Shown: in pieces, positions 8,915-61,590 of the stretch | How positions within the stretch are numbered: the first letter of the stretch is position 1 | How the letters are laid out: each line of letters opens with the position of its first letter | Virus record (IMG/VR): IMGVR_UViG_3300029305_011953 | Span: 9,990-73,989 of that record | Origin: a virus | Lineage: Duplodnaviria > Caudoviricetes | Reading direction: 5' to 3' (one strand) | DNA: 64,000 nt | Program-made: the position numbers and the translations under genes | Notes under the pieces: model-generated | Told to the model about the DNA's origin: nothing | What the model saw: the letters and a program-made list of their open reading frames with translations, nothing else | Databases searched by the model: none

Positions 8915-11028
8915 TTGTACCGTTTAGAGGATATGTAAAAACCAAGGATAAAAGCCCTTGTCAGAAGTTCGGAAACGGAGAGCCACTTTTGACATTGGAA
9001 GAAGTGGAAAATCTCGATGAATACGCAGGGATATTAAACGGTGAGTTTACGGTCAAAGACGTGGACGAAACTGGTGAGGCGGAAAGGGTTTATAGGTTCG
9101 TAACCGATATGAACTACAACTGCCGTGTATACAAAACGACCAGGGGTCTGCACTTTATGTTCAAAAGCAGTCCCTATTGCACGAAAGGCGTGGTTAAGGC
9201 TACCGATGCGCTCGGTTTTTCCTTCGACGTCCGCACGGGCAAGAATATGTACGTAGTCTTGAAAAGCAAGGGGAAAGTAAGAGAAATTATTCGAGATTTT
9301 GACGAGTCTCGACCGATTGACGAATTTCCTAAATGCCTTGCACCTGTCCGCAATGCCCAGAAGTTCACCGGTATGGGTGACGGTGATGGAAGAAACGGTG
9401 CATTGTTCAAGCATTCTGCTTTACTTTTGAAATGCGGATATACGCCTTCCGAGGTAAAGAGTATTCTGTATTTTATCAACAACTACGCATTCGACGAACG
9501 CCTCTCTGAAGAAGAGATGCAGAAGATAACCAGAAGAGAGGCATTAGAGAATTTCGTAGAGAGTAGCTCTGCGGCAGAAGACTTCGGTAACCCTCTTAAG
9601 CCGACTACGCAAAACGATATCGGTATGGCGGAATTGTTCGTGCAAGAATACCGAAATGAGGTGCGTTATAGCCCTGCAACGGGGTGGATTGTTTGGGATG
9701 GAACGAGATGGGAGCCTTCTGAACTGAAAGCGGAGCAGAAGTATATCGAGTTCGTGAAAAGAGCGCTGAAAGAGGCTCGAAAAGAGGTGCAGAACTCTTA
9801 TGGCACTCTTGGCGAAGTTGCTATGGGAGAGGGCGAAAAGAGTGCAAAAGAGGATGCGGAGAGAGCGATAAAAGAGGCGCTTGCTTATTTCAAATTCGTC
9901 AACAAGATGTGCGATAGCGGAAAAATAAAAGCCGTGATGAGCATTGCGAAGGGGTTTCTTGAAATAGGTGTTAGCGAATTGGACAGCAATCCGTTTGAAT
10001 TGAACACACCCTTTGGCATTGTGGATTTGAAAACGGGAGTAGTATATCCGCACCGTGCGGAGTCATATTGCACCAAAATAACCAAGGTGGCTGCGACGAT
10101 GGACGGTATGGATATGTGGCAAGAATGTCTTGACTTGGTTTCGCAGAACGACGAGGAGTTCAAGTCATATTTGCAAACCGCCGCCGGAGCGATTGCAATT
10201 GGTAAGGTCTATCAAGAGGCACTCATCATTGCCTTTGGGGACGGCGCAAACGGCAAAAGCACGGTTTTCAACACAATTTATGAAGTTTTAGGCGATTATG
10301 CGGGCAAAATCCCTGCGGAATCGCTGACTACGAAGGCGAGAAACACCAAAGTTGACCTTGCAGAACTGCTTGGAAAGCGGTTTGTCCTTGCAAGCGAAAC
10401 GGAAGAAGGTCAACGTCTTTCTACCAGTATGCTGAAACAGATTGCAAGCGTGGATACCATCACGGGCGAGAAAAAGTACCACGATCCGTTCACGTTCACA
10501 CCTACGCACACAACTGTGCTTTATACGAACCACCTGCCGAGAGTAGGTAGCAACGATAAAGGCACGTGGCGAAGACTGATAGTTGCACCGTTTAACGCAA
10601 ACATTAAGAACCCCAGAACCAACTATGGCGAAGAACTGCTGACGAAGGCAAGCGGTGCGGTTTTGAAGTGGATAATCGACGGCGCAAAGATGTTTATTGA
10701 CGGCGGGTTCAAGATACCGCATTGCAAAAAGGTGGACGATGCGATTGGCAAGTACCGTGAAGAGAACGATTGGCTTGCACATTTCCTTTCGGAGTGTTGC
10801 ATTGTCGGCGAAAAGGAGTCGGTCGGCGGGGGCGTGCTTTATAAGGCTTACCGCGCGTGGGCTACGGAAACGGGCGAGTATGTGCGCCGAAATAGGGATT
10901 TTGCGGATGCGTTGCGTGTCGCAGGTTTTGAAATGAAGAAAACAAGCAAAGAAAACGTATGGAAAGGGCTGACTTTGTCGGTTGACAGAGCATACGGTAC
11001 AACGGCAGAGGAGGATTTCCTGAAATAA
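8911..11028 (+). CDS. Phage primase-polymerase / D5-type SF3 helicase (P4 family)
   Basis: N-terminal prim-pol-like KTTRGLHF, D5_N-like NDIGMAELF and WIVWDGTRW, Walker A GDGANGKST, LASETEEG, HTTVLYTNHLP. Confidence 0.9.
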   Translation: MIVPFRGYVKTKDKSPCQKFGNGEPLLTLEEVENLDEYAGILNGEFTVKDVDETGEAERVYRFVTDMNYNCRVYKTTRGLHFMFKSSPYCTKGVVKATDALGFSFDVRTGKNMYVVLKSKGKVREIIRDFDESRPIDEFPKCLAPVRNAQKFTGMGDGDGRNGALFKHSALLLKCGYTPSEVKSILYFINNYAFDERLSEEEMQKITRREALENFVESSSAAEDFGNPLKPTTQNDIGMAELFVQEYRNEVRYSPATGWIVWDGTRWEPSELKAEQKYIEFVKRALKEARKEVQNSYGTLGEVAMGEGEKSAKEDAERAIKEALAYFKFVNKMCDSGKIKAVMSIAKGFLEIGVSELDSNPFELNTPFGIVDLKTGVVYPHRAESYCTKITKVAATMDGMDMWQECLDLVSQNDEEFKSYLQTAAGAIAIGKVYQEALIIAFGDGANGKSTVFNTIYEVLGDYAGKIPAESLTTKARNTKVDLAELLGKRFVLASETEEGQRLSTSMLKQIASVDTITGEKKYHDPFTFTPTHTTVLYTNHLPRVGSNDKGTWRRLIVAPFNANIKNPRTNYGEELLTKASGAVLKWIIDGAKMFIDGGFKIPHCKKVDDAIGKYREENDWLAHFLSECCIVGEKESVGGGVLYKAYRAWATETGEYVRRNRDFADALRVAGFEMKKTSKENVWKGLTLSVDRAYGTTAEEDFLK

Positions 11029-42221: not shown

Positions 42222-42596
42222 ATGACGAACGAAGAAAAAAATAAAATCATTGAACTGTCCCAACAGGGGCTTGGATACACAAAAATTGCAACGCAGGTGG
42301 GTTTGTCCCCAAACAGCGTAAAAACATTTTTAAGAAGGCAGAAGGAACATACTTCGTGCCGGTGTTTACAATGTGGGACGGAAATTACGAGTATGCCGCA
42401 TAAAAAGGAAAAGAAGTTCTGCTCGGCTGTTTGCCGTATGCGTTGGTGGAACGAGCACCAAAAGCAAGTGAACAGAAAGGCATACTATACCTTGACGTGC
42501 GAATGCTGTGGCTCTACCTTTGTCACGTATGGGAATGCAAAGCAAAAATTCTGTTCTCGTAAGTGTTTTGCTAATTATCGGAGGAAAGAAAAATGA
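42222..42596 (+). CDS. HTH plus double zinc-finger protein (recombinase-associated regulator)
   Basis: GLGYTKIATQVGLSPNSVKTFLRR HTH; CLQCG...FCSAVCRMRWW; CECCG...FCSRKC. Confidence 0.82.
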   Translation: MTNEEKNKIIELSQQGLGYTKIATQVGLSPNSVKTFLRRQKEHTSCRCLQCGTEITSMPHKKEKKFCSAVCRMRWWNEHQKQVNRKAYYTLTCECCGSTFVTYGNAKQKFCSRKCFANYRRKEK

Positions 42597-42763
42597 TGGA
42601 AAATCAAGAGAATATTTTAAGATATACCTTGGCGGTAACAATGGCAGAATCGATGCTTGAAAAGGGTATTATTTCCAAGGACGATTATAATAAAATTGAA
42701 CAGAAATTTTGCGAAAAATATTGTATCAATTTATCGTCTATATTCCGCAAAATCGCTGGATAA
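42593..42763 (+). CDS. 56-aa SHOCT-like protein upstream of the recombinases (below the ORF-track cutoff)
   Basis: My translation: MMENQENILRYTLAVTMAESMLEKGIISKDDYNKIEQKFCEKYCINLSSIFRKIAG; ATGA overlap with the upstream stop; MLEKGIIS.DDY is SHOCT-like. Confidence 0.75.
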   Translation: MMENQENILRYTLAVTMAESMLEKGIISKDDYNKIEQKFCEKYCINLSSIFRKIAG

Positions 42764-42805
42764 TATTCTCTTTTAGAGGTAATATACACATACCAAAAAA
42801 GGAGG
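42748..42805 (+). promoter_or_regulatory. Conserved promoter core, copy 3 of 3, upstream of recombinase 1
   Basis: CAAAATCGCTGGATA...TTTTAGAGGTAATATACACATAC followed by AAGGAGG. Confidence 0.7.
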
Positions 42806-42810
42806 GTATT

Positions 42811-44091
42811 ATGGCAAGAATTGTTCAAGTAATTCAACCTACGAAAAACATAGGAATTGAATATTTGAATGTTTGTGCGTATGCGAGAGTTTCAAGTGGA
42901 AAAGATGCAATGATGCATTCGCTTTCCGCGCAAATCAGCTATTACCAAACATACATTCAAAGAAAGCAAAACTGGCGTTTCCGTGGGGTATATGCGGACG
43001 AGGCAATTTCGGGGACGAAAGACAACCGTGAATGCTTTAATGCAATGCTTGAAGAGTGCCGAAAGGGGCATATTGATTTAATTGTTACGAAGTCAATTTC
43101 AAGATTTGCAAGAAACACGATTACGCTTTTGGAAACGATACGAGAGTTAAAGGATATAGGTGTTAACGTTTACTTTGAAGAACAGAACATCAACACCCTT
43201 TCGGCGGAAGGGGAAGTGCTTTTGACTTTGTTGGCATCCTACGCACAGGAAGAAGCTCGTTCGGCAAGCGAAAATCAAAAATGGAGAGTGCTGTTGAATT
43301 TCAAACAAGGTAAACCTTGGTGTTGCACTATGTTTGGATATCGTCACGAAAAGGGGAAGTTTTATATCGTCGAGCGTGAGGCAGAAATCATTCGATGGAT
43401 TTATAAATCTTACCTTGAAGGGCGTGGAACGACAGCAATCTCTAATGACCTCGCCGCTTATGGGGAAGTTGGTAGGAAGGGGCATTTATTTTCAAAAGGT
43501 TCAGTTATGAAAATTCTTCGGAATTATGCTTATACGGGAAACTTGATACTTCAAACGACCTATCGAGAAAACTATATGACAAAGGTTCGTAAAAAGAATG
43601 AAGGTCAACTTCCAATGTACCAGGCAGAAGATACGCACGAGCCGATTATAGACCTTGCTACTTTTAAGGAAGTACAAGCAGAAATTGCTCGGCGGAAAGA
43701 AGAGTTTGCGCCAAAAAAAGAAAAGGGCAGGTATGCGTTCACGGGGTTAATCAAGTGCGAAAACTGCGGAAAGGGATTTAGGCGCAAGACGACGGCAACC
43801 AGAGTTGTTTGGATATGCTCGACCTTCAATACAAGGGGAAAGATGTATTGCCATGCAAAACAAATCCCCGAAGAAACGCTTGAGAAATTAACGGCGGATT
43901 TAGACCTTTCGACCGTAAAAGAAATCAGGGCGGCGGAAGGGAATAAACTAACCTTTGTTTTTAAAGACGGAAAGGAAGAAATACGGTATTGGAAAGACCG
44001 TTCGAGAAGTGAGTCTTGGACGGAAGAAAAACGGAAAAAAGCAAGTGAAGACGCATATAGGAGGGAATATAAATGCCGAAAGTTACAATAA
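42811..44091 (+). CDS. Large serine recombinase 1
   Basis: YARVSS catalytic motif, TKSISRFARN, recombinase domain, zinc ribbon CENCG...WIC...C. Confidence 0.92.
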   Translation: MARIVQVIQPTKNIGIEYLNVCAYARVSSGKDAMMHSLSAQISYYQTYIQRKQNWRFRGVYADEAISGTKDNRECFNAMLEECRKGHIDLIVTKSISRFARNTITLLETIRELKDIGVNVYFEEQNINTLSAEGEVLLTLLASYAQEEARSASENQKWRVLLNFKQGKPWCCTMFGYRHEKGKFYIVEREAEIIRWIYKSYLEGRGTTAISNDLAAYGEVGRKGHLFSKGSVMKILRNYAYTGNLILQTTYRENYMTKVRKKNEGQLPMYQAEDTHEPIIDLATFKEVQAEIARRKEEFAPKKEKGRYAFTGLIKCENCGKGFRRKTTATRVVWICSTFNTRGKMYCHAKQIPEETLEKLTADLDLSTVKEIRAAEGNKLTFVFKDGKEEIRYWKDRSRSESWTEEKRKKASEDAYRREYKCRKLQ

Positions 44092-45656
44092 TACCAGCAA
44101 CAAGAGATTTCCATACAGGAAACCTTAAAAACGATTTGAGAAAAAAGCGAGTGGCTGCCTATGCTCGTGTTTCCACGAATAGCGAAGAACAACAGACTTC
44201 CTATGAGGCGCAAGTAGATTATTATACCAAATACATCAAAAGCAGACCCGATTGGGAGTTTGTTGATGTTTATACAGATGAAGGTATAACCGCAACCAAC
44301 ACAAAAAAGCGTGAAGGCTTTAAGGAAATGGTGGAAAACGCCCTTGCGGGAAACATAGACCTAATCATCACAAAATCGGTCAGTCGATTTGCGAGAAATA
44401 CGGTTGACAGCTTAACGACGATCCGTAAGTTGAAAGACAAGGGTATTGAAGTTTTCTTTGAAAAGGAAAATATTTATACCTTGGATAGCAAGGGGGAGTT
44501 GGTATTAACAATTATGAGTTCCCTTGCCCAGGAAGAAAGCAGAAGTATTTCGGAAAACGTAACTTGGGGCAGAAGAAAGCAATTCGCCGACGGGAATGTC
44601 TGCTTGCCCTATAAACATTTCCTTGGATATAAAAAGGGCGAAGACGGCAAACCAGAAGTTGTTCCTGCAGAGGCGGCGATTATACGATTGATTTATATGC
44701 TTTTCCTTGAAGGGAAAACGCCAGGGGCGATTGCGGATTACTTAACGGAACAAGGCTTTCCCACGCCGACAAATAAAAGTAAGGTGTGGCACTTGAAAAC
44801 GGTAGAGAGTATTCTCACGAACGAAAAATACAAAGGTTCGGCAATTCTGCAAAAGAAGTACACCGTCAATTATTTGGAAAAGAAAATGGCGGTAAACGAC
44901 GGGCAAGTTCCTAAATATTACATTGAAGAAAGCCACGAGGCGATTATCCCCCCTGGCGAGTTTGAAATGGTACAAGAAGAAATGAAACGCCGCAAAAGTT
45001 TATCGAGAAAATATAGTGGTTCAACCTTGTTTGCATCAAAGATTATTTGTGGAGATTGCGGTTCGTATTTTGGCGCAAAGGTGTGGCATTCAAATACAGA
45101 ATACCGTCGAGTGATTTATCGATGTAATGAAAAATACGAGAAGAAAGGCGCACCCAGGTGTTCGACGAGCCATCTTTCCGAAGACGAAATTAAGAACGGT
45201 TTTGTACGAGCGTTGAATATTTTGATTAACGAAAAGCAAGTAGTGTTGGATGATTGCAGATTACTATTTGATACGCTGACGGAAACAACGGAATTGGATG
45301 CACAAATTGAAATGCAAATGGCAGAGCGAGAATATGCTATGGAAATTTTGAAGAAATGCGTTGAGGATAATGCGATAAAAGAGCAGAGTCAATTAGAATA
45401 TTGGAAACGCTACGATGCCCTTGCGGAACGTTACGAGGCGGAAAAGAATAAACTTGAAAAACTCCTTGCTTTAAAAGAAGAACGCAAGCACAAGGCGGAA
45501 TTGATAGGCGCGTTTATGTTTGAGTTAAGCGAAATGGACGGAATAATTGAGAATTTCGATGCTCGGCTTTGGTTTTTCACGGTTGAAAGAGTGGTTGTTA
45601 CCGAAGGCAAGAAAATGACATTTGAAATGAGAAACGGTGCAAAAATTGCCGTGTGA
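44073..45656 (+). CDS. Large serine recombinase 2
   Basis: YARVST, TKSVSRFARN, LAQEESRSISEN, CGDCG zinc ribbon, coiled coil. Confidence 0.94.
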   Translation: MPKVTIIPATRDFHTGNLKNDLRKKRVAAYARVSTNSEEQQTSYEAQVDYYTKYIKSRPDWEFVDVYTDEGITATNTKKREGFKEMVENALAGNIDLIITKSVSRFARNTVDSLTTIRKLKDKGIEVFFEKENIYTLDSKGELVLTIMSSLAQEESRSISENVTWGRRKQFADGNVCLPYKHFLGYKKGEDGKPEVVPAEAAIIRLIYMLFLEGKTPGAIADYLTEQGFPTPTNKSKVWHLKTVESILTNEKYKGSAILQKKYTVNYLEKKMAVNDGQVPKYYIEESHEAIIPPGEFEMVQEEMKRRKSLSRKYSGSTLFASKIICGDCGSYFGAKVWHSNTEYRRVIYRCNEKYEKKGAPRCSTSHLSEDEIKNGFVRALNILINEKQVVLDDCRLLFDTLTETTELDAQIEMQMAEREYAMEILKKCVEDNAIKEQSQLEYWKRYDALAERYEAEKNKLEKLLALKEERKHKAELIGAFMFELSEMDGIIENFDARLWFFTVERVVVTEGKKMTFEMRNGAKIAV

Positions 45657-45689
45657 GGATGCGTAAAAAAAGTAGGCGCAACCAAAAAT

Positions 45690-45725
45690 AGAGAAAACTC
45701 CTGTTAAACGCAGGAGTCTTTTCTT
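45690..45725. terminator. Probable bidirectional terminator between convergent modules
   Basis: ACTCCTG-TTAAACG-CAGGAGT with A-rich and T-rich flanks. Confidence 0.65.
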
Positions 45726-46721
45726 TTATAAATCGTCAATAGAACTTTGGAACGGAAAGGAAGGTTCGATTGCATCCGTATCATCTTCGTCGTCTTCATC
45801 TGCATCGCCTTCATCGATTTCGTCAACATCTTCTGTGGTAATATCTTCCTTTTCCGTGTCATCATCGGGGTTGAAAGAGGGCGAATAGTGGTTTTCTTCG
45901 TCTTCATCATCCAAACCTTCTGCATCGTAGCCTTTTGCGTAGAGCATACCAATAGGTAATCGGAATAAGTCGCTTTTCTTCTTTCCGTTATAAATTATTA
46001 CCATTGCTTCTGCATATCCAAGGGTGCCAGAACGTCTTTCCTTGGCGGTTCGCGCAATGGTTTTTATGGATACTGCGCCTAATTTTTCCTTAAAAATCTC
46101 GTCATCCAAACGGTCTCGGTAGGTATTGACAAGTTTTGCAACCGCCCTTAAAACATTTGCAGAAAGGGAATTAGAATCGCCTTCCCACGCCGCAATAACC
46201 AAACGAAGCGTGCGATTAAGGGTTTGATAACCATATTTAGTATAAATGGATTCCAATGATGAGATTGCACAAATAACGCCAGGAGCCTTTGTTAAACCGA
46301 TGGTAAGGTTGTAAGATTCGACCAAATCTCGTATTAAGAGCTGTTGGTGGTTTCCCGCCTCAAGGTGCGCCATGAAGATTTCATAAGGGAGCAGGGGTTT
46401 AACGAATTTCTGCTGATTGGCAAAGATGTCGGCTTCGTTTTGATATTCGAGATCGTCATAAACCATGCACCATACAGGGGTTTCGCGAGAACCCGAAACA
46501 CGTGCAATAATCTCGATGGTATGCTGTCCGTTGAAAACATAGTTAATTCCGTCACGCTTACTAACTTTTACGGGATTGATTTGGTTAAGGTCGAAGTTTT
46601 CTGCGGCCTTTTCAATATGAGCAATCGAAAGATTTCTTTGATAATCTTGGTTCGATACAAGGTCTTTAATGGGAATAAGTTCAAAATGAACTTGTGGCAC
46701 GTACATACTATAATCACTCAT
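45726..46721 (-). CDS. DUF6551-like ParB/DGQHR-fold protein with acidic tail
   Basis: QDYQR...NPVKVS.RDG.NYVFNGQHT; very acidic C-terminus. Confidence 0.75.
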   Translation of the reverse strand: MSDYSMYVPQVHFELIPIKDLVSNQDYQRNLSIAHIEKAAENFDLNQINPVKVSKRDGINYVFNGQHTIEIIARVSGSRETPVWCMVYDDLEYQNEADIFANQQKFVKPLLPYEIFMAHLEAGNHQQLLIRDLVESYNLTIGLTKAPGVICAISSLESIYTKYGYQTLNRTLRLVIAAWEGDSNSLSANVLRAVAKLVNTYRDRLDDEIFKEKLGAVSIKTIARTAKERRSGTLGYAEAMVIIYNGKKKSDLFRLPIGMLYAKGYDAEGLDDEDEENHYSPSFNPDDDTEKEDITTEDVDEIDEGDADEDDEDDTDAIEPSFPFQSSIDDL

Positions 46722-47683
46722 TTTCTACTCTCCGATGCAAGGAAGTAAAGCACTTCCACTATTTTATTTTCTAATTCTTGTAAAACTCTCATCAATTTTG
46801 CCCTTGCCTCTGTGGACGTGAGGTCAATTTTTGTATTTGTTTTCATACGATTAATTGAACTTATCCACATAGGTATCGTTAAGGATAACTCGTTAAGAGA
46901 GGCGTCTGGGTCGAATTTAGGCATATCCTTGATGGAAGGCTTACTGACAACTGGTTGCGGGTTTGGCTGTGCGGAAGTTTCATCAAGCAGATACCTTGTC
47001 CGCTTATATTGGACGAAAGGAACGCTGTTCTCTTTGATACGTTGGTGTATTTTTTTCATTTCCGCAGGGGAGAGCTTTGAAATTGCGATAATGTTTTCGT
47101 GGGAAATTTTATATCTTCCTGACAAAATTTTATGGGCAAGGTCTGGCTCATGTGATTTGATAATATCGATTGCTTTCGTGAAAGTGGAATACTTATGTAC
47201 CGTAGCGTGGGTGATATGGTTTTCATTGGCGATACGTTGTGCGGTTTTATGCCGAGAGGCACTTTCTACAACGTTGAAATCGGCAGGTAAATCATCTTCT
47301 GGGGGAATGGTATATTGATTGTTCCCCGTTGGGTTTTTGGATGCGTTGACGATTTTTTCCGACTCATACTGTCGACCGATTAAGTATCGACGGCTTTCAT
47401 CTGACAAATTCCTGCGGCCGAGTTGATTTTTGCATATCCAAGCAATGGCTTCTTCTCGGCAAGAAAAGTCCATTTCCATCACTTCAAAAGGGATAGCGTT
47501 TTTGGAGCAGATTTCATAACGATTATGCCCGTCAACGATAATTCCATTCCAAGTAATGATAGGGTCTCGGCAACCATCTGCTTTAATATTTTCTTCTAAT
47601 TGCACAAATTCCTTCCGTTTAAGTGGACGAATAATTGTTTTAAATTCCTCGTCGATTTTAAGAAGGCGGAGTTTCTTTTCCAT
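46718..47683 (-). CDS. ParB-like protein (N-terminal ParB domain plus HTH)
   Basis: QLEENIKADGCRDPIITWNGIIVDGHNRYEIC, KNQLGRRNL, TAQRIANENHITHATV. Confidence 0.8.
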   Translation of the reverse strand: MEKKLRLLKIDEEFKTIIRPLKRKEFVQLEENIKADGCRDPIITWNGIIVDGHNRYEICSKNAIPFEVMEMDFSCREEAIAWICKNQLGRRNLSDESRRYLIGRQYESEKIVNASKNPTGNNQYTIPPEDDLPADFNVVESASRHKTAQRIANENHITHATVHKYSTFTKAIDIIKSHEPDLAHKILSGRYKISHENIIAISKLSPAEMKKIHQRIKENSVPFVQYKRTRYLLDETSAQPNPQPVVSKPSIKDMPKFDPDASLNELSLTIPMWISSINRMKTNTKIDLTSTEARAKLMRVLQELENKIVEVLYFLASESRK

Positions 47684-47689
47684 CGGTCT

Positions 47690-48046
47690 TTAAGCCTCCA
47701 ACTCGACTTTTTCGACGTTGTCAAACGCAAAAAGTGCGACTTTTTTTGCCTGATTTACTTCGCCTCGCAAACGATAACAAGTTGTTCTGTCTGTCCAACC
47801 CAAAGCCTTGAATAGCTGTTGGGTTAATGCAAAGCTGTAAATTTCATAGCTATTGTCTTTGCAAACGTGGCTATTGATGGTGATGCACCCAGGCTCTTCG
47901 TTGGGGATGCTGCGAACAGCAAGCATTCTGGTGTCGGGGTTGACAAGCAAATGAATATACTTGGGCGAACCGAGTTCCTGTAATAACGTTTTATAAAAAC
48001 GCATTCTGTATTTTCGTGGGTCGATAGAAATAATTGCAGTAGACAT
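47690..48046 (-). CDS. Accessory protein; stand-alone copy of the recombinase C-terminal domain
   Basis: YIHLLVNPDTRMLAVR...LFKALGW..CYRLRG pattern shared with 48062-48847 and the recombinase C-terminus. Confidence 0.7.
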   Translation of the reverse strand: MSTAIISIDPRKYRMRFYKTLLQELGSPKYIHLLVNPDTRMLAVRSIPNEEPGCITINSHVCKDNSYEIYSFALTQQLFKALGWTDRTTCYRLRGEVNQAKKVALFAFDNVEKVELEA

Positions 48047-48061
48047 AAAATGTCCTCCTTA

Positions 48062-48847
48062 TTAAACAATGGATTGTTGAACCACCGCAGGAACGTTATC
48101 GGACGGTTGTTCGGAAGGCGGTTCGGGCGGAGGTGTAGCGGGTTTATTGGCTTCTTTAATAGAATAAACGGCGTAGCCTTCAAAAATGTTTATACGCATG
48201 GTTTGTTTATGCTCGTTCAAAGTCATACCGAACTGATTCTGCCAATTAGCAGGATAAATTGCGGTACGAGATGTTTTCGGCTTTTCGCCTTCTCTGACTG
48301 TGCGTTGATAAACTTCCGTAGCGGTTAAATCGAATACGAGTAAATATTCGCCGTTTGCGTGGATGAGTTTGCCGAGGATTTTATACTTATAATGCGGATT
48401 CCATCCCATCAAATCTACGATTTTTGCGAAGAAAATCTTGCAAGTAATAGAACGAGTTTTGCGCTTTCCGTTGGAAGGATTACACCAAGGGAAAGAGTCT
48501 CTTGCGCCTTCTTCGCAGGGGCGCAGAGCAAGAATTTTCTTTTCACGATTCACGAGAACCTGGGCGTAGTTTGCATTCGGGAATTTAGACAAACACGCTG
48601 CGTTCGCAAAGAATTTACATTCATTAAAGGTAATAGAGGGTTCTTTAAGGTGGGCGAAGAATTCACGTCTTACGACTTGGAAGTCGTCGAAGTCAAAGTC
48701 TTCACTCATATCAAGTAATTCATCCGTTTCCTTTAATTTAGGCGTTTGCTCGTCCGAAGACGGGGTAGGCAGATCGGCAGGGGAATCGTCCTGCACCTTT
48801 TCTAATAATCCTGCTAAAACATCTTTTTTTTCATTCATCTCATCCAT
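48062..48847 (-). CDS. Recombinase accessory protein; homologous to the recombinase C-terminal domain
   Basis: FQVVRREFF...PSITF...YAQVLVNREKKILALR...LMGWN...YKILG. Confidence 0.75.
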   Translation of the reverse strand: MDEMNEKKDVLAGLLEKVQDDSPADLPTPSSDEQTPKLKETDELLDMSEDFDFDDFQVVRREFFAHLKEPSITFNECKFFANAACLSKFPNANYAQVLVNREKKILALRPCEEGARDSFPWCNPSNGKRKTRSITCKIFFAKIVDLMGWNPHYKYKILGKLIHANGEYLLVFDLTATEVYQRTVREGEKPKTSRTAIYPANWQNQFGMTLNEHKQTMRINIFEGYAVYSIKEANKPATPPPEPPSEQPSDNVPAVVQQSIV

Positions 48848-48853
48848 TTCGTT

Positions 48854-50746
48854 TTACTCCTGTAATGAAACACCGCTTAATTCGGCGTGTATGTATTTTT
48901 TAAGTACGTCAAAGCCAGTCACATTGATACGTTTTCCCGTTTCATAGAGTTGACCTTGTAAGCGTAAATTCCAGTCTTGCTCGTTCTGGGTATCGAGCGT
49001 GTCAAGTGTTAATTCGTGCAAATAATAGTCCTTCCCAAATGAACTCGTCCACTCTTGAGGGATAGCTCGTATTCTTTTGCCAGCCGTGGTTAGCGGTTTG
49101 GCTTGTTCGCTCTGTTCGTCTGGCGTAGCTCGTTCAAGCATATGTGGATTAAGGAAAGCCTCCGAGTTCTGGGCATCGAAAATATAAACGAGTTCGTCGT
49201 CTTTTTCATAGATAGACCCGATTATTTTATAGCGACAGTCCGTATTCCAAGAAAACAATTCAAATAGTGTATCGTTGAACGCTGCCGAAGAGATATCTTT
49301 GGGAACATACTTCTTCATTGAGAGCTTGGAGCAATGAACGCCGTGGCGGTTATTTGCATCTGTGGCGCGAATTGCAAACTTCTTCTCAATAGGGTGGATA
49401 AGCAATTCAATATAATTTTTTGCGCCGAATTTACGGATGATTTCCGTGCTGAACTTGATTTTCTTACTGCCGAATGAAACAGAAGGTTTGCGGAAAGTAT
49501 CGAAAAATTCCGAACGGGTAACTTCAAAACCACGCATATCAAAATCACCGGCAGAGAACTCGATTTTCAAATCTTCGTCTTTGCTTTGGGTAGGAACGCT
49601 TTCCGTGCCGTCAGCTTCGGTTATATAAACGCTTTGAGATGCGTTGATATAGTCGGTAAATTTGAAACCAGCCCAGCGTGGATTGATGGATACAAAACCT
49701 TTCAATTTACCTTCTTCGATTACTCGAAGTTCAGGCAAAAAAGCCTTATTCCTAAACTTTGCGTTGTCGAGCATATGCTGAACGGCGATAAAGTCATCTC
49801 TGGACACGATAGCCTCGTGGTGATTAAAATATCGGCTTTGCGGTCTTTTTCCGTAATTCTTTTTAGACTTGTGATCGTGGTAATCGGGGGTGTAGGTTTT
49901 TCTTGTCAATACATCCCCACAATGACGTTCATTTCTTAATATTTGAACCACGCCGTTTGCCGTCCATTTCACGTTTCCAAGATAGGACTTTCGTTCGAGG
50001 GCGTTCAATGCCTCGGCGATATGCTTTGTGGAATAGCCGTATAAATACATATAAAAGACCAGTTTAACGGTGGGGGCTTCGTCCTCATTAATGACGAGAT
50101 TGCCTTCGGCATCGTGCGTGTAACCGAGCAGTTTCGGAGTAAGAGGGATACCGTTATCCAAACGCATACGAAGGGATGTTTCCATACTTCGACTGCGGGT
50201 ATGAGATTCTTCTTCCGCCATTGTTGCTTGGAAGGTGAGAGCCAATTGCGCATCGTCATTCAAAGAGAAGATTGCTTCGGATTCAAAGAAAACGCCTACC
50301 CGACGTTTAAGGTGCGCAAGGCTACGGACAACGCCAATGAAGTCTTCCAGGTTTCTGGCGAAACGAGAGACGCTTTTCGTGATAATCATATCGAACTTAC
50401 TTGCTTTGGCATCTTCAATCATCTGCATGAACTCTTGACGGTGTTCCTTATTCGTACCGCTTTTTCCTTCGTCGGCATAAATTTTTACAAGTGTCCAGTT
50501 AGGGTGCTGACGGACGAAATCTTCATAATACTTCTTCTGTAATTCAAAGGATGTTGTTTGGCGAATATCGTCAGTTGAAACACGAACGTAAATAGCAACA
50601 CGCTGATGGATGTCATTATCATAGTAATCCGTTTCCTTTTCGGCGGGTATGTATTCGTAATTATCGGGGTCAATCCGTACTTGCATACGTTGACGGGTCT
50701 TCGCCTTCTTTTGGGCGAGGAGTTCTCTTTTTTCTATATCAATCAT
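48854..50746 (-). CDS. Large serine recombinase 3 with extra C-terminal domain
   Basis: YVRVST, TKSVSRFARN, MAEEESHTRS, LGY, ILRNERHCGD; lacks the zinc ribbon but has an extra C-terminal domain of about 200 aa. Confidence 0.92.
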   Translation of the reverse strand: MIDIEKRELLAQKKAKTRQRMQVRIDPDNYEYIPAEKETDYYDNDIHQRVAIYVRVSTDDIRQTTSFELQKKYYEDFVRQHPNWTLVKIYADEGKSGTNKEHRQEFMQMIEDAKASKFDMIITKSVSRFARNLEDFIGVVRSLAHLKRRVGVFFESEAIFSLNDDAQLALTFQATMAEEESHTRSRSMETSLRMRLDNGIPLTPKLLGYTHDAEGNLVINEDEAPTVKLVFYMYLYGYSTKHIAEALNALERKSYLGNVKWTANGVVQILRNERHCGDVLTRKTYTPDYHDHKSKKNYGKRPQSRYFNHHEAIVSRDDFIAVQHMLDNAKFRNKAFLPELRVIEEGKLKGFVSINPRWAGFKFTDYINASQSVYITEADGTESVPTQSKDEDLKIEFSAGDFDMRGFEVTRSEFFDTFRKPSVSFGSKKIKFSTEIIRKFGAKNYIELLIHPIEKKFAIRATDANNRHGVHCSKLSMKKYVPKDISSAAFNDTLFELFSWNTDCRYKIIGSIYEKDDELVYIFDAQNSEAFLNPHMLERATPDEQSEQAKPLTTAGKRIRAIPQEWTSSFGKDYYLHELTLDTLDTQNEQDWNLRLQGQLYETGKRINVTGFDVLKKYIHAELSGVSLQE

Positions 50747-51407
50747 TTTGCGCTATTCCTTTTAGGGGTTCTTCGTTATCGTCGGGAAGGAGTTTCCAGT
50801 TCTCGGACGGGAAGAAGAAATCTTTGTCCGAAGTGTCACTACGATAATAGGTGGCAAGCGTGAAGATGTCTTCTGATGCGAAGTACATTCCAATAGGGTG
50901 GGGCAACGCTGCGAAATATCGTGCGAGTAAAGTGAGTTCCATCATATCCTTGGAAACGTTAGATACCTTTTGCGTAATGATAAGGTCAACCTTGCCTTCC
51001 ATACAGTCGTTCAACAATCGACTCCATTCGGGGGCGGATTCCATATAGGGAGCAGTAGCACCTTCGTCGATATAAAATCCAACGAACGTCCACTTGGGAT
51101 ATTGTGCGAGGACATCCTCGTATTGCTTTTTATGGTAGTCGAGATAATTCTCGTACTTGGTTTGATTGAAGTAGCGAATATAAACTCCGACTTTGAATGG
51201 TTTTGCTGGGTTCGGCGTTTCGTGTCGAATCGTTTTTAACCACGCAGAATGTTTGGCAACTTTCTCACCGTGTTTTGTCGTTGGGATAAAAGACGAGCCT
51301 AACTGCGCCAACGGCGTGATCTCCGTTGTATGGGCGCAAGAAACCAAGCTGGTGTCATCCGCCTGCATTAATTCCGTTGAATTCTCTGTATTTTTACTCT
51401 CTTGCAT
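50739..51407 (-). CDS. Resolvase-domain-only protein, catalytic serine absent
   Basis: VGVYIRYFN replaces YxRVS(T); FYIDEG and GKVDLIITQKVSN retained; RBS GGAGG before ATG 51407. Confidence 0.7.
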   Translation of the reverse strand: MQESKNTENSTELMQADDTSLVSCAHTTEITPLAQLGSSFIPTTKHGEKVAKHSAWLKTIRHETPNPAKPFKVGVYIRYFNQTKYENYLDYHKKQYEDVLAQYPKWTFVGFYIDEGATAPYMESAPEWSRLLNDCMEGKVDLIITQKVSNVSKDMMELTLLARYFAALPHPIGMYFASEDIFTLATYYRSDTSDKDFFFPSENWKLLPDDNEEPLKGIAQND

Positions 51408-51523
51408 ATCTGCCTCCATTACATTTATATCAAGTATAAGGCATTTGGAAGAAATTGGAAATCGACCATAGGTTAAATCGTAAACCACGAGTTTATGTTT
51501 TTGGAAAAATTTTACAAAAAATA

Positions 51524-51552
51524 AGAGACAGCAGCGAACTGCTATCTCTTTT
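51524..51552. terminator. Hairpin after the minus-strand XRE gene
   Basis: AGAGACAGCAG-CGAA-CTGCTATCTCT with flanking A/T runs. Confidence 0.55.
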
Positions 51553-51571: not shown

Positions 51572-51919
51572 TTAATTGTTAGCTCGAAGGGTTTCTTTTA
51601 GATTTTTTACGAATTTAAGGATTGTTTCCATCTCTGTGGGGGAGCAATCGGATAATAAAGAAGCGAACTCTGTTTGATAAATGTCGTTTACCTGCGGAAG
51701 ATCGGGACGGATGAGGCTGTCTGAGGAAATTTCCAAGGCTGTGCATATAGCGATGAGTGAGGTAACACGGAAATTTGCTTTACCGCGTTCAATATCGCTT
51801 ATATTCGACACTCCAATTTTTGTTTCAAAGGCGAGGTCTTCTTGACTCATATTTTTTTCAAGACGAGCCGAACGAATGCGCTGACCTATAGCCTCCAAAA
51901 TAATTTTTACATTGTCCAT
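51572..51919 (-). CDS. XRE-family HTH regulator
   Basis: IGQRIRSARLEKNMSQEDLA...ISDIERGK. Confidence 0.9.
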   Translation of the reverse strand: MDNVKIILEAIGQRIRSARLEKNMSQEDLAFETKIGVSNISDIERGKANFRVTSLIAICTALEISSDSLIRPDLPQVNDIYQTEFASLLSDCSPTEMETILKFVKNLKETLRANN

Positions 51920-52060
51920 GGAATTGTCTCCTTTGCCTTTTGACTATGTTCTTGCATAAATTTTATCACTTTTTGACAAAGTAGTGAAATGCCAAATGAC
52001 GAAACTTGGTCTTTTGGCTATAATATAAGTAAGAAAATTTTTAGTTTGGAGGACTAAATT

Positions 52061-52420
52061 ATGATTTTTAACTATTTAACTATCGGTCAACGAGTGAGAG
52101 ATGCGAGACGGAAGAAGCGTTTCTCACAGGCGGAACTTGCCCATCGGGTAGGCGTAACAACGTGCTACATAAGCTACATTGAAAGTGGCTATAAGTGTAT
52201 GAGCTTGGAAACTCTGATTCGCGTTGCAAATGCATTAGAAGTAACAGCCGACGTTTTTTTGGCGGATTGTTTGGATAAGCATTTGGTTGCAAGCGAGGCA
52301 GAGTTTTCTTTGATTTTAGAGGACTGTTCCTTGTATGAAAGCCGTGTTATTCTCGATAATGCGCGAGAGTTAAAACGAATTTTGCGAGAAAATCTATTTA
52401 CAAAATCAAACCGTGAATAA
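52061..52420 (+). CDS. XRE-family HTH regulator (divergent partner)
   Basis: IGQRVRDARRKKRFSQAELA...ISYIESG..SLETLIRVANAL. Confidence 0.9.
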   Translation: MIFNYLTIGQRVRDARRKKRFSQAELAHRVGVTTCYISYIESGYKCMSLETLIRVANALEVTADVFLADCLDKHLVASEAEFSLILEDCSLYESRVILDNARELKRILRENLFTKSNRE

Positions 52421-52486
52421 ATTATAAACGCATTTTTTCATAACGGCAATCGACCGAAAGTTAAAATTTAGACCAACGGTAGAATT

Positions 52487-52661
52487 GGTTGCGTATATAA
52501 TTTTTGGTTTCGATTATATGAAATTCCTTTTTTTGGTAAAAAGGGATTATTTTGTGCTACAATTTTTTTCCGCTTGAAGAGGGAGGTTGCGTATATGATT
52601 TTGGTTTTCGTTTATATGAAAATTACGGACGTGAAAAAACCCTCTTTTTTTATGCTATAAT
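52487..52661 (+). promoter_or_regulatory. Tandem duplicated promoter unit (about 99-bp period)
   Basis: GGTTGCGTATAT.ATTTT.G.TTTCG.TTATATGAAA at 52487 and 52586, each followed by an extended -10 (TGCTACAAT 52555, TGCTATAAT 52653). Confidence 0.55.
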
Positions 52662-59684: not shown

Positions 59685-60061
59685 TCAATAGGTATTCGTG
59701 TTCCGTCCGAAAGGATGAGAGTTCTTTCGTAGGTATCGATTTTTTTGACAACGCAATCAATAGTTTTATACGAGCCACCTTCTTTTCGTTCATCCTTAAT
59801 AAAGTAAGTAATGGAAACGACGGGCGAAAGATGTAGGTTGGCGGTTAGCTCTTGGAACGCAAGGTCGAGTTCGGCTTTGCGGTCTTCATCCATATCAATC
59901 CAAGCCTCGGTTCGGCGTATGGATTCATCTATGGATGCCTCAAAGCCTGTCAATGCGGCGAAAGGCGAGAATTGTGCTGCTCGGTCGTGCATTGACATTT
60001 GCGACCTTGTTTTAGAGACATGATGAGGTGAGTGGAGGATGCTTGCGTATTTTTCGTTCAT
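59648..60061 (-). CDS. YolD-like protein (UmuD functional analogue)
   Basis: HHVSKTRSQMSMHDRAAQFSPFAALTGF, ITYF..D..KEGGSY; downstream of the Y-family polymerase. Confidence 0.88.
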   Translation of the reverse strand: MNEKYASILHSPHHVSKTRSQMSMHDRAAQFSPFAALTGFEASIDESIRRTEAWIDMDEDRKAELDLAFQELTANLHLSPVVSITYFIKDERKEGGSYKTIDCVVKKIDTYERTLILSDGTRIPIDYVVDLSCEPTD

Positions 60062-61590
60062 GCTTTATGTCCTCCTATTTGGTGATTGCGTTCCTTGGTG
60101 GTTGCGCCATCTTCAAAGTTCATACCTTTGAGCATTGAATTTTTCCCGTATTTCTTTTGAATGGCAATTACGGTTTCTTGGCGTTTTCTTTCCTTCGCAA
60201 GAGCTGCTTGTTCTTCTTTCCGTTGAGCGCGTTCTGCTGCGTAGTCGGTAAAAAGGTCAAGTTGCTCGTATCCGCCACAAAGTTCTTCTTCTGCAACATC
60301 CTCATTTTTTATATGAGTGAAAGTGATATTAATTCTGCGTATCAGAAGGTCTTTGTCGATAATTCGGTCGTATAACCGAACGACGGCATCCATAAGTTGT
60401 TTGGTAGAAGAAGTGGGGCGTTTGAGGTTTTCCGTTCCGTGGGCATGTTTGGGGGTTTCCCTGCCGTAGCGGTCGATAGTCACTTCGCCATAATAATTCC
60501 TGCGGATTTTTTCATTTTTGAGATTATCCACATCATAGCCTATGGTCAGCACGACTTGGTTGGTGACCAGTTTTTTATCCACTAAATCAAGGACAAGAAG
60601 GTCTGTCATTTCACGAACGATAAGCCGTGCTTTTTCCGCCGTATAGGGGCAATGCAAAACCTGTCCAGACGAAATGCTGTTTGCGGAAGGAACGTAAGAT
60701 TTAATGTCGGGTATTCCGCAAGGCTCCCAGCCCCAAGCGTGGTCAATAATGAGTTCAGCATTAATCCCAAATATTTTATAGAGTAAATCTTCGTTATATG
60801 AACCGCCGAGCTTGCCTTCGGAGCATAAGCAAACATCGCCTAAAGTATAAAGACCGTAGGCTTCGAGTTTATTTGCTATACCATTTCCAATGCGCCAAAA
60901 GTCAGTAAGGGGACGATGATCCCACAGCTTTTGACGGAAAGACATCTCGTCAAGTTCTGCAATACGCACGCCATTTTCGTCGGGGGGAATGTGTTTAGCT
61001 GTTATATCCATTGCAACTTTCGCCAAGAAAAGGTTTGTACCTATTCCGGCGGTGGCTGTTATTCCCGTTGTGTTTAGAACATCAAGAATAATTTTCATAG
61101 CAAGTTGCTGTGCGGTAAGTTTATAGGTGGAAAGGTAATCCGTTACATCCATAAAGACTTCGTCGATAGAATAGACGACGATGTCTTCTTCTGATACGTA
61201 TTTTCGGTAAACCTCATTGACTTTTGTGCTTACTTGCATATATTTCGCCATTTGCGGCGGAGCAACTATGTAATCAAGTTGAAGGGAGGGGTTTGCCTTA
61301 ATGTCGGGGTCGTGGAAGGATTTTCCTGTGAACGTGCGATTTGGCGCTTTGCGTTTACGGTCGTAGTTCACTTCACGGACTTTTTGTATGACTTCAAAAA
61401 GTCTTGACCTTCCGCCTATGCCATAAGATTTGAGCGAGGGGGAAACTGCCAAGCAAATCGTTTTTTCGGTATGGGATGCATCAGCAACGACCAAATTTGT
61501 CGTCAGCGGGTCAAGACCACGTTCGACGCATTCCACGGAGGCGTAAAAGGATTTAAGGTCAATAGCGATATAAATTCGTTGTTTTTCCAT
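60058..61590 (-). CDS. Y-family error-prone DNA polymerase (UmuC/UvrX-like)
   Basis: IAIDLKSFYASVEC, PPQMAKY, YSIDEVFMD, GIGTNLFLAKVA. Confidence 0.93.
   Translation of the reverse strand: MEKQRIYIAIDLKSFYASVECVERGLDPLTTNLVVADASHTEKTICLAVSPSLKSYGIGGRSRLFEVIQKVREVNYDRKRKAPNRTFTGKSFHDPDIKANPSLQLDYIVAPPQMAKYMQVSTKVNEVYRKYVSEEDIVVYSIDEVFMDVTDYLSTYKLTAQQLAMKIILDVLNTTGITATAGIGTNLFLAKVAMDITAKHIPPDENGVRIAELDEMSFRQKLWDHRPLTDFWRIGNGIANKLEAYGLYTLGDVCLCSEGKLGGSYNEDLLYKIFGINAELIIDHAWGWEPCGIPDIKSYVPSANSISSGQVLHCPYTAEKARLIVREMTDLLVLDLVDKKLVTNQVVLTIGYDVDNLKNEKIRRNYYGEVTIDRYGRETPKHAHGTENLKRPTSSTKQLMDAVVRLYDRIIDKDLLIRRINITFTHIKNEDVAEEELCGGYEQLDLFTDYAAERAQRKEEQAALAKERKRQETVIAIQKKYGKNSMLKGMNFEDGATTKERNHQIGGHKA

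Follow-up and report, generated by a model that had tools for sequence, protein, structure and literature searches.

Among the major tools of genome engineering are the large serine recombinases, in which both the recognition of sites and the control that makes the reaction one-way are located in the zinc-ribbon/coiled-coil region. Here we describe a gene cassette in a 64,000-nucleotide stretch of viral DNA (Duplodnaviria; Caudoviricetes; IMG/VR record IMGVR_UViG_3300029305_011953, positions 9,990 to 73,989; hereafter the window), in which one such enzyme, Rec630, carries a different domain at this place. This domain, called X below, is encoded twice more in the two genes directly downstream, as the free proteins P261 and P118. 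The window forms the last part of a 74-kb provirus record, and the cassette is also carried by deposited phages of Candidatus (Ca.) Heliusvirales (from Blautia, Coprococcus, Agathobacter and others), where its genes are all annotated as hypothetical. Members of this order rank among the most prevalent temperate phages in the human gut (PMC11283538). The paper defining the order does not mention recombinases, a literature search found no description of the cassette, and a viral scan with one of the proteins as query returned no matches.

One domain in three neighbouring genes

The listing of open reading frames (ORFs) confirms three adjacent domain-bearing genes on the minus strand:

48854..50746, minus strand: Rec630, a 630-residue serine recombinase (Resolvase, Recombinase, new domain and C-terminal extension)
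48062..48847, minus strand: P261, 261 residues, a free copy of the domain (domain residues about 50-180, at 48308-48700) with an acidic N-terminus
47690..48046, minus strand: P118, 118 residues, a minimal free copy of the domain (BLASTP and hhalign)

The common segment is about 120 residues long and lies within residues 401-530 or so of Rec630 (49157-49546). By BLASTP, residues 379-581 of Rec630 align with residues 21-217 of P261 at 27% identity (E 2e-20), residues 429-524 align with residues 14-109 of P118 (E 1e-8), and P261 and P118 match each other at E 8e-4. When the P118 family (49 sequences) is compared with the domain of the P261 family (102 sequences), hhalign gives a probability of 99.2% over 104 columns (E 7.3e-20). 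These BLASTP and hhalign values rule out chance similarity, and the alignments place the homology of the three segments beyond doubt. A first-pass annotation, made from the letters of the window, had proposed one domain in three copies from an alignment by eye and had named profile similarity as its check; that similarity is significant, and the motifs it quoted align as it had written them. The recombinase tail and P261 share two further motifs, an N-terminal DFDxxxFxVxRxEFF and a C-terminal PxxWxxxFG, and P118 has neither. A search of the entire 74-kb record with the three-copy profile returned exactly the three known copies. P118 is the fastest-evolving gene of the cassette, its orthologues being 31-42% identical. 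Four cysteines of P261 (C85, C111, C122 and C136) are invariant or nearly so in its family, lie within the barrel and are absent from the Rec630 and P118 copies; this paralogue might therewith have a metal or redox site of its own.

X is thus real and widespread, an unnamed domain with a predicted beta-barrel fold. It falls outside all Pfam, NCBIfam and PHROG models, and no solved structure is matched by sequence. In a library of 1.84 billion protein representatives, the three-copy profile matches 1,975 clusters at E<=1e-3, mostly proteins of 120-300 residues and some recombinases of about 620-800 residues; among the longer matches that were scanned, the majority of those with a Pfam domain are recombinases. 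P261 alone corresponds to 1,878 clusters at 90% identity, none with a name, and the ESM Atlas holds only phage clusters that are either unnamed or automatically named. Alignment-based AlphaFold models of P261 (predicted local distance difference test, pLDDT, 84, with the core above 90) and P118 (pLDDT 91, predicted template modelling score 0.82) each place two beta-beta-alpha-beta-beta halves in one barrel. Compared with each other by hhalign, the barrel halves reveal no internal repeat.

The representative search also returned P0236 (279 residues), which starts like P261 and switches within the barrel to a tyrosine-recombinase C-terminus (HSLRH...). This is the sole Pfam case of X joined to a tyrosine recombinase, and we read it as a chimera, probably from an insertion or from assembly, because its barrel is incomplete and gives way to the tail of an integrase.

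Domain X in place of the zinc ribbon

Rec630 matches the Resolvase domain (PF00239, E 3.3e-25) and the Recombinase domain (PF07508, E 5e-21, residues 221-327). It has no match to the zinc-ribbon family PF13408 at E<=0.1; the neighbouring recombinases Rec426 and Rec527 match that family at about 1e-10. Across 43 Rec630-type recombinases, the catalytic residues R55, S57, R128 and R131 are invariant, as are Y53 and D92, and these sequences contain no conserved cysteine beyond C276. Judged as a large serine recombinase, Rec630 qualifies by its Resolvase and Recombinase domains and not by a zinc ribbon, and X occupies the place that a zinc ribbon and coiled coil normally take in these enzymes. The first-pass proposal that X takes the place of the zinc ribbon agrees with the missing PF13408 match and the lack of a conserved cysteine after C276 in a cassette whose neighbours have the ribbon. 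In one clade of large serine recombinases, X has taken over from the zinc-ribbon/coiled-coil region.

The other three genes of the window cassette are on the same strand:

50739..51407, minus strand: dead resolvase-domain protein, 222 residues (PF00239, E 3.4e-5)
46718..47683, minus strand: ParB-like protein ParB321, 321 residues (PHROG 21315, E 1.4e-11; other ParB-like PHROG matches weak)
45726..46721, minus strand: DUF6551 protein of a ParB/Srx-fold family, with an acidic tail (PF20188, E 9.1e-31)

The DUF6551 protein scores 107.7 bits against PF20188, above the curated cut-off of 26.8. For the dead resolvase, the start is the ATG at 51407, which has a GGAGG ribosome-binding site; the ORF listing begins at a GTG at 51488. 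Its catalytic serine is missing in 50 of 50 orthologues, and R128 is replaced by N and K124 by Q in all 50, as expected of the "dead" enzyme that the first-pass annotation had taken it to be. The fold residues Y53, R55, D92, G94, F154 and E157 are kept, and the helix-E region is lost or not conserved. By these substitutions the protein is a pseudo-enzyme, conserved as such.

Conservation of the cassette

We scanned one genome per species and obtained 256 loci, mostly from Clostridia, of which 80 were kept for gene-order counts; each count covers those of the 80 loci whose flank is long enough. P118 is present in 78/79, ParB321 in 72/73, the DUF6551 gene in 67/68, Rec630 in 70/70 and the dead resolvase in 67/69. 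The gene order is near-invariant in the 80 Clostridia loci and in the Ca. Heliusvirales phages. A survey of synteny had been named in advance as a check on the suggestion of a six-gene recombination machine, and the genes do co-occur in other genomes almost without exception (as with Rec630 and P118 above). The part of the suggestion that does not stand is that six genes are the minimal unit, since a second type of cassette is smaller.

This second type (type 2, the window cassette being type 1) was reached through a divergent branch of the P261 family, which led to 75 IMG/VR loci. Most of these have a recombinase of Rec630 architecture (37-40% identical) and a P261-like gene, and a P118-like gene was detected in about a third. 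Dead resolvase or ParB-fold genes occur in only one of the 75, L179, which is a type-1 cassette. Type-2 loci also have a pair of zinc-ribbon recombinase genes upstream of the cassette, on its own strand. In eight contigs (L146, L147, L149, L150, L154, L126, L136 and L171), the shared sequence ends at one point, at locus position ~8600, about 0.9 kb past the P261-like gene, with the sharp end sequence ...CCTGAAAGCACCGAGGGAGTTTCCGA. Beyond it lie unrelated host genes, encoding a galactokinase, a nucleotidyl transferase, a pilin-like protein, a polysaccharide flippase, an ABC transporter and an insertion sequence. One shared end point followed by unrelated host genes indicates that the type-2 trio is located at a prophage end and that these prophages are inserted at many places. 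Four type-2 records were searched for an inverted copy of the near end, and none has one.

Two further features of type-2 phages were seen. The recombinase gene is preceded, and nearly overlapped, by a conserved ORF ending in ...SYRKMRQWYW, at the place where type 1 has the dead resolvase; the ORF is located about 330 nucleotides 5' of the recombinase start (for example L119:4840-5170). In addition, a sequence of about 54 nucleotides occurs twice per phage record, tens of kilobases apart (L186:15544-15597 and a second place; records G010-G014).

Twin palindromes at the immunity switch

In the window, the minus-strand gene row from XRE115 to the DUF6551 gene sits between the late/lysis genes and the early genes. 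Its upstream end contains a pair of divergent helix-turn-helix (HTH) genes and two copies of a palindrome:

52061..52420, plus strand: XRE119, putative HTH gene that starts the rightward early operon (ORF; own promoter-like site at 51996-52024)
51572..51919, minus strand: XRE115, HTH gene divergent from XRE119 (ORF; promoter-like site at 51988-51960)
51523..51550, minus strand: intrinsic terminator 3' of XRE115 (12-bp stem, then a T run; a hairpin is present here in related loci too)
51461..51496, no strand: site A, 36-bp quasi-palindrome (position weight matrix score 21.6)
51433..51461, minus strand: promoter-like P_A abutting site A, directed into the cassette (TTTCCA-17-TATACT)
52449..52484, no strand: site B, 36-bp quasi-palindrome directly 3' of the XRE119 stop codon (position weight matrix score 19.2)
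52421..52449, minus strand: promoter-like P_B abutting site B, antisense through XRE119 towards XRE115 (TTGCCG-17-TATAAT)

XRE115 and XRE119 are present in 58/65 and 60/63 loci, respectively. XRE115 presumably has a CI-like role, and XRE119 is a putative HTH/Cro-like protein by its position and its similarity to XRE115. The predicted terminator after XRE115 insulates the cassette from the repressor transcript, and the operon would not be read through from the repressor gene.

The palindrome has the consensus ATAAACC-N3-GGTCAA-N4-TTGACC-N3-GGTTTAT and is found between the XRE115 terminator and the dead-resolvase gene in nearly every locus. We built a weight matrix from the palindromes of related loci. 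In the 64-kb window it matches only sites A and B, which are about 975 bp apart, and none of 20 shuffles reached a score of 10. Of 66 loci, 63 have site A and 43 have the two sites together, with a spacing of mostly 960-1013 bp. Site A also lies 5' of the recombinase in Blautia phage PV036437, which is without the dead resolvase, and the palindrome is found nowhere else in five whole host genomes and not at all in type-2 loci. Within each palindrome, the centres of the AAACC, GTCAA, TTGAC and GGTTT motifs are 9 bp apart, a spacing that would suit two pseudo-dimeric barrels and equally a dimer of the recombinase that contacts DNA through its Recombinase and X domains. In none of the loci read do A and B have the same central dinucleotide (TC versus AT in the window).

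Both sites have a fixed relation to a candidate promoter. A -10 hexamer (at least 5/6) in the same direction follows 21-22 nucleotides downstream at 52 of 54 unique A sites and 20-22 nucleotides downstream at 39 of 44 unique B sites, with a poor -35 in each case. P_A would read into the cassette, whilst P_B would run antisense across the putative cro-like gene XRE119 and on into XRE115, the CI-like gene. Lambda CII drives P_RE (repressor) and P_I (integrase) together, and the pattern expected of a CII-type activator, in which two promoters each have a poor -35 directly beside the same operator and one of the two is antisense to a cro-like gene, is present here in the sequence. Because the two putative promoters share one type of operator, the cassette would be turned on together with repressor synthesis, that is, when lysogeny is set up; activator logic at these sites is the interpretation that we favour.

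Two observations concern the neighbourhood of site B. A 37-nucleotide element, GGTTGCGTATATAATTTTTGGTTTCGATTATATGAAA, occurs in two copies that are 89% identical and 98 bp apart (window 52487-52523 and 52585-52621), in the stretch from site B to the first metallophosphoesterase gene. Both copies contain a TATAAT-like box, and the pair may be duplicated early promoters or operators. In Anaerotignum neopropionicum DSM 3847 (L041:3922-4511), a 590-bp segment with the XRE119 homologue and site B is inverted relative to L037:1046-1633 and L021:4433-4982. A site-specific inversion was rejected for this segment, as its break points carry no palindrome or site. Host nonribosomal peptide synthetase genes are found downstream of the DUF6551 gene in one locus, and these genes together with the break points make L041 look like a decayed or rearranged element.

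Flanks of the cassette

To the left of the cassette, two canonical zinc-ribbon serine recombinases, Rec426 and Rec527, converge on it:

45657..45725, no strand: hairpin in the gap where the DUF6551 and Rec527 genes converge (sequence read directly)
42222..45656, plus strand: convergent module with an HTH/zinc protein (42222-42596), Rec426 (42811-44091) and Rec527 (44073-45656) (Pfam)

In most loci a pair or triplet of zinc-ribbon recombinase genes lies beyond the cassette; how far away varies. The DUF6551 gene is followed by the terminator hairpin and then by zinc-ribbon recombinase genes or variable cargo, and between close relatives homology ends +12 to +80 nucleotides past the DUF6551 stop codon, just beyond the equivalent hairpin. 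Homology that breaks right after the hairpin, together with variable flanks, marks a module boundary. An attachment (att) site directly after the DUF6551 gene was considered and rejected, as the breaks follow the terminator hairpin and the flanks are variable cargo. The ends of the NatCom phage records were likewise discarded as att sites because their positions disagree between records, and the ends of the window provirus gave no useful matches.

Between the cassette and the convergent recombinases lies a gap that is a cargo hotspot in L014, L016, L029, L030 and L070, and in L119 cargo lies beyond the junction. The genes found encode an SNF2 helicase with SLOG, an ATPase/DUF234 protein, Fic, a CoiA-like protein, T5orf172 with ResIII, RNase III and a Thoeris ThsA Macro-domain protein, and resemble defence or moron genes. 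Towards the right-hand end of the provirus record, the window also contains a gene for a Y-family DNA polymerase (IMS and IMS_C; 60058-61590, minus strand), relatives of which were found in uncultured gut phage contigs.

Discussion

The trio of Rec630, P261 and P118 is probably part of the lysogeny and integration side of these phages. Quite possibly, and as a tentative first choice, X is the second DNA-reading module of the recombinase, which the free copies assist as accessory subunits. X would then serve as a targeting module beside the Recombinase domain in Rec630, and P261 and P118 would bind the same or related DNA motifs, or Rec630 itself, and so shape the choice of site, the assembly or the direction of the reaction. 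Recombinase and transposase derivatives consisting of the DNA-binding domain usually act as accessory subunits in this way. The trio is the conserved core, to which the window type adds the dead resolvase paralogue and two ParB-fold proteins. A single regulator may turn on the synthesis of the repressor and the recombinase operon together, in the manner of lambda CII at P_RE and P_I, and the cassette would act in the establishment of lysogeny, by integration or a linked DNA rearrangement. An accessory role of P261 and P118, and integration as the reaction, are presumed here.

Several results weigh against X as a DNA-reading module of an integrase. We infer DNA binding by X from a weak fold resemblance and from the position of the domain in the protein. 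In the structure search, MraZ ranks first for both models and B3 domains next, with matches below significance; Foldseek against the PDB gave nothing at E<=0.001 for either model. A five-sequence profile of MraZ from host genomes reached a probability of at most 1.1% in hhalign, and none of 102 family members matched PF02381 (MraZ) or PF04014 (AbrB) at E<=1. These profile and Pfam comparisons reveal no sequence kinship between X and MraZ or AbrB, and the AbrB/MraZ-like fold of the first-pass annotation keeps its structural side, with MraZ as a sub-significant top match, and loses any sequence-profile support: it is a reasonable lead, no more. For Rec630, no recombination site, attP or attB was found, and the cassette is located mid-provirus in the record of the window rather than at an end. 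The canonical zinc-ribbon recombinases beside both cassette types could be the true integrases. P_A and P_B are consensus promoter matches only, and site variants show no clean covariation with residues of eight neighbouring proteins.

P261 and P118 might instead act mainly as transcription factors, as MraZ and AbrB do, and bind palindromes A and B to control P_A and P_B in establishing or locking lysogeny, with the fused copy tethering the recombinase to the same operators or autoregulating it there. The four motifs 9 bp apart lie on one face of the DNA and would fit two pseudo-dimeric barrels, and the palindromes accompany the cassette even in the Blautia phage without the dead resolvase and are absent elsewhere from the five host genomes. 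The best fold match, MraZ, is a regulator that binds promoters (PMC12957436), and SPbeta MrpR, reported as a prophage repressor with a recombinase fold, provides a precedent (PMC10516654). However, type-2 cassettes retain the trio without the palindrome, site variants do not covary with residues of P261 or P118, and an activator encoded in its own target operon cannot initiate expression alone. The target of MraZ is also made of direct repeats rather than palindromes (PMC12957436), and on balance we regard a primarily regulatory role of the free copies as rather unlikely.

It is also fairly unlikely that X is a protein-protein module which has replaced the coiled coil that controls synapsis, with the free copies acting on the recombinase tail as decoys or directionality factors that switch the reaction on, off or into reverse. 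P261 copies the barrel and the flanking motifs of this tail, as a mimic would; P118 evolves fast, as antagonists often do; and the dead resolvase, with its serine lost in every orthologue, also resembles a protein that regulates how subunits assemble. It is on the very zinc-ribbon/coiled-coil region replaced by X that known directionality factors act (PMC5814800, PMC11722253). Yet without a zinc ribbon DNA would have to be read by the Recombinase domain alone, which is short by the standards of site-specific enzymes in this class, and the nearest folds are those of DNA binders.

That A and B are the crossover sites of Rec630, and that the ~1-kb immunity segment with XRE119 and XRE115 is inverted or deleted between them as a genetic switch, is very improbable: they bracket the switch at a conserved spacing, resemble serine-recombinase sites in size and layout (36 bp, an inner and an outer motif per half), and the XRE119 segment is inverted in L041, but their differing central dinucleotides make recombination between them unlikely, as canonical serine-recombinase exchange would give mismatched products (which led us to reject them as partners), the L041 break points do not match the sites, the segment is flipped in no other type-1 locus that has both genes, and both sites stand at an operator-like fixed distance from their -10 boxes.

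A bolder form of the proposal that X reads DNA for the recombinase would make the trio a new class of serine-recombinase system, in which an MraZ-like barrel targets DNA, free barrels programme or relax the choice of site and private 36-bp operators wire the whole to the lysis-lysogeny switch. We consider this a long shot. Free barrels that programme or relax site choice would, if real, explain why type-2 prophages are found at many unrelated chromosomal places, and these multi-site insertions raise the question of relaxed or programmable target choice.

Taken together, the cassette points to an uncharacterised kind of lysogeny/integration machine in a very common family of gut phages. Despite the prevalence of Ca. 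Heliusvirales, the module presumed to establish their lysogeny has so far gone without study. A natural clade that swaps the zinc-ribbon/coiled-coil region for X, and that adds free X proteins and a dead catalytic subunit, would represent a different solution to targeting and control, and the twin operators offer a handle on how repressor synthesis may be coupled to DNA rearrangement.

Comparison with known systems

In its predicted topology of two halves in one barrel, X resembles MraZ (PF02381), the swapped-hairpin barrels of AbrB, MazE and SpoVT, and the pseudobarrels of plant B3 domains. The arrangement of the putative promoters resembles the lambda CII regulon, where one type of operator likewise serves two promoters with a poor -35: P_B would correspond to P_RE, antisense through a cro-like gene into the repressor gene, and P_A to P_I, leading into the recombinase operon. 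Unlike the TTGC-N6-TTGC direct repeats of CII, the putative operator here is a 36-bp palindrome. As in Tn3 and gamma-delta resolvases at res, a recombinase-family protein could bind a palindrome at its own promoter, but res has three sites that cover promoters, whereas the cassette has one site 5' of the -35. SPbeta MrpR is a reported precedent for a catalytically dead recombinase-family protein in prophage control (PMC10516654); it is tyrosine-recombinase-like, whereas the dead resolvase here is a bare serine-recombinase catalytic domain without a DNA-binding domain.

The closest likeness is to the large serine recombinases (phiC31, Bxb1, A118/LI, SPbeta SprA, CcrA/B and TnpX). Rec630 shares with them the Resolvase domain with its Ser/Arg set followed by the Recombinase domain, as well as the setting in a temperate phage, beside the immunity region and among small accessory genes. 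It differs from them in having an unrelated barrel of about 120 residues and an extension of about 100 residues in place of the zinc ribbon and coiled coil, in a barrel that is also encoded twice as a free protein, and in an operon that includes a dead catalytic paralogue and two ParB-fold proteins.

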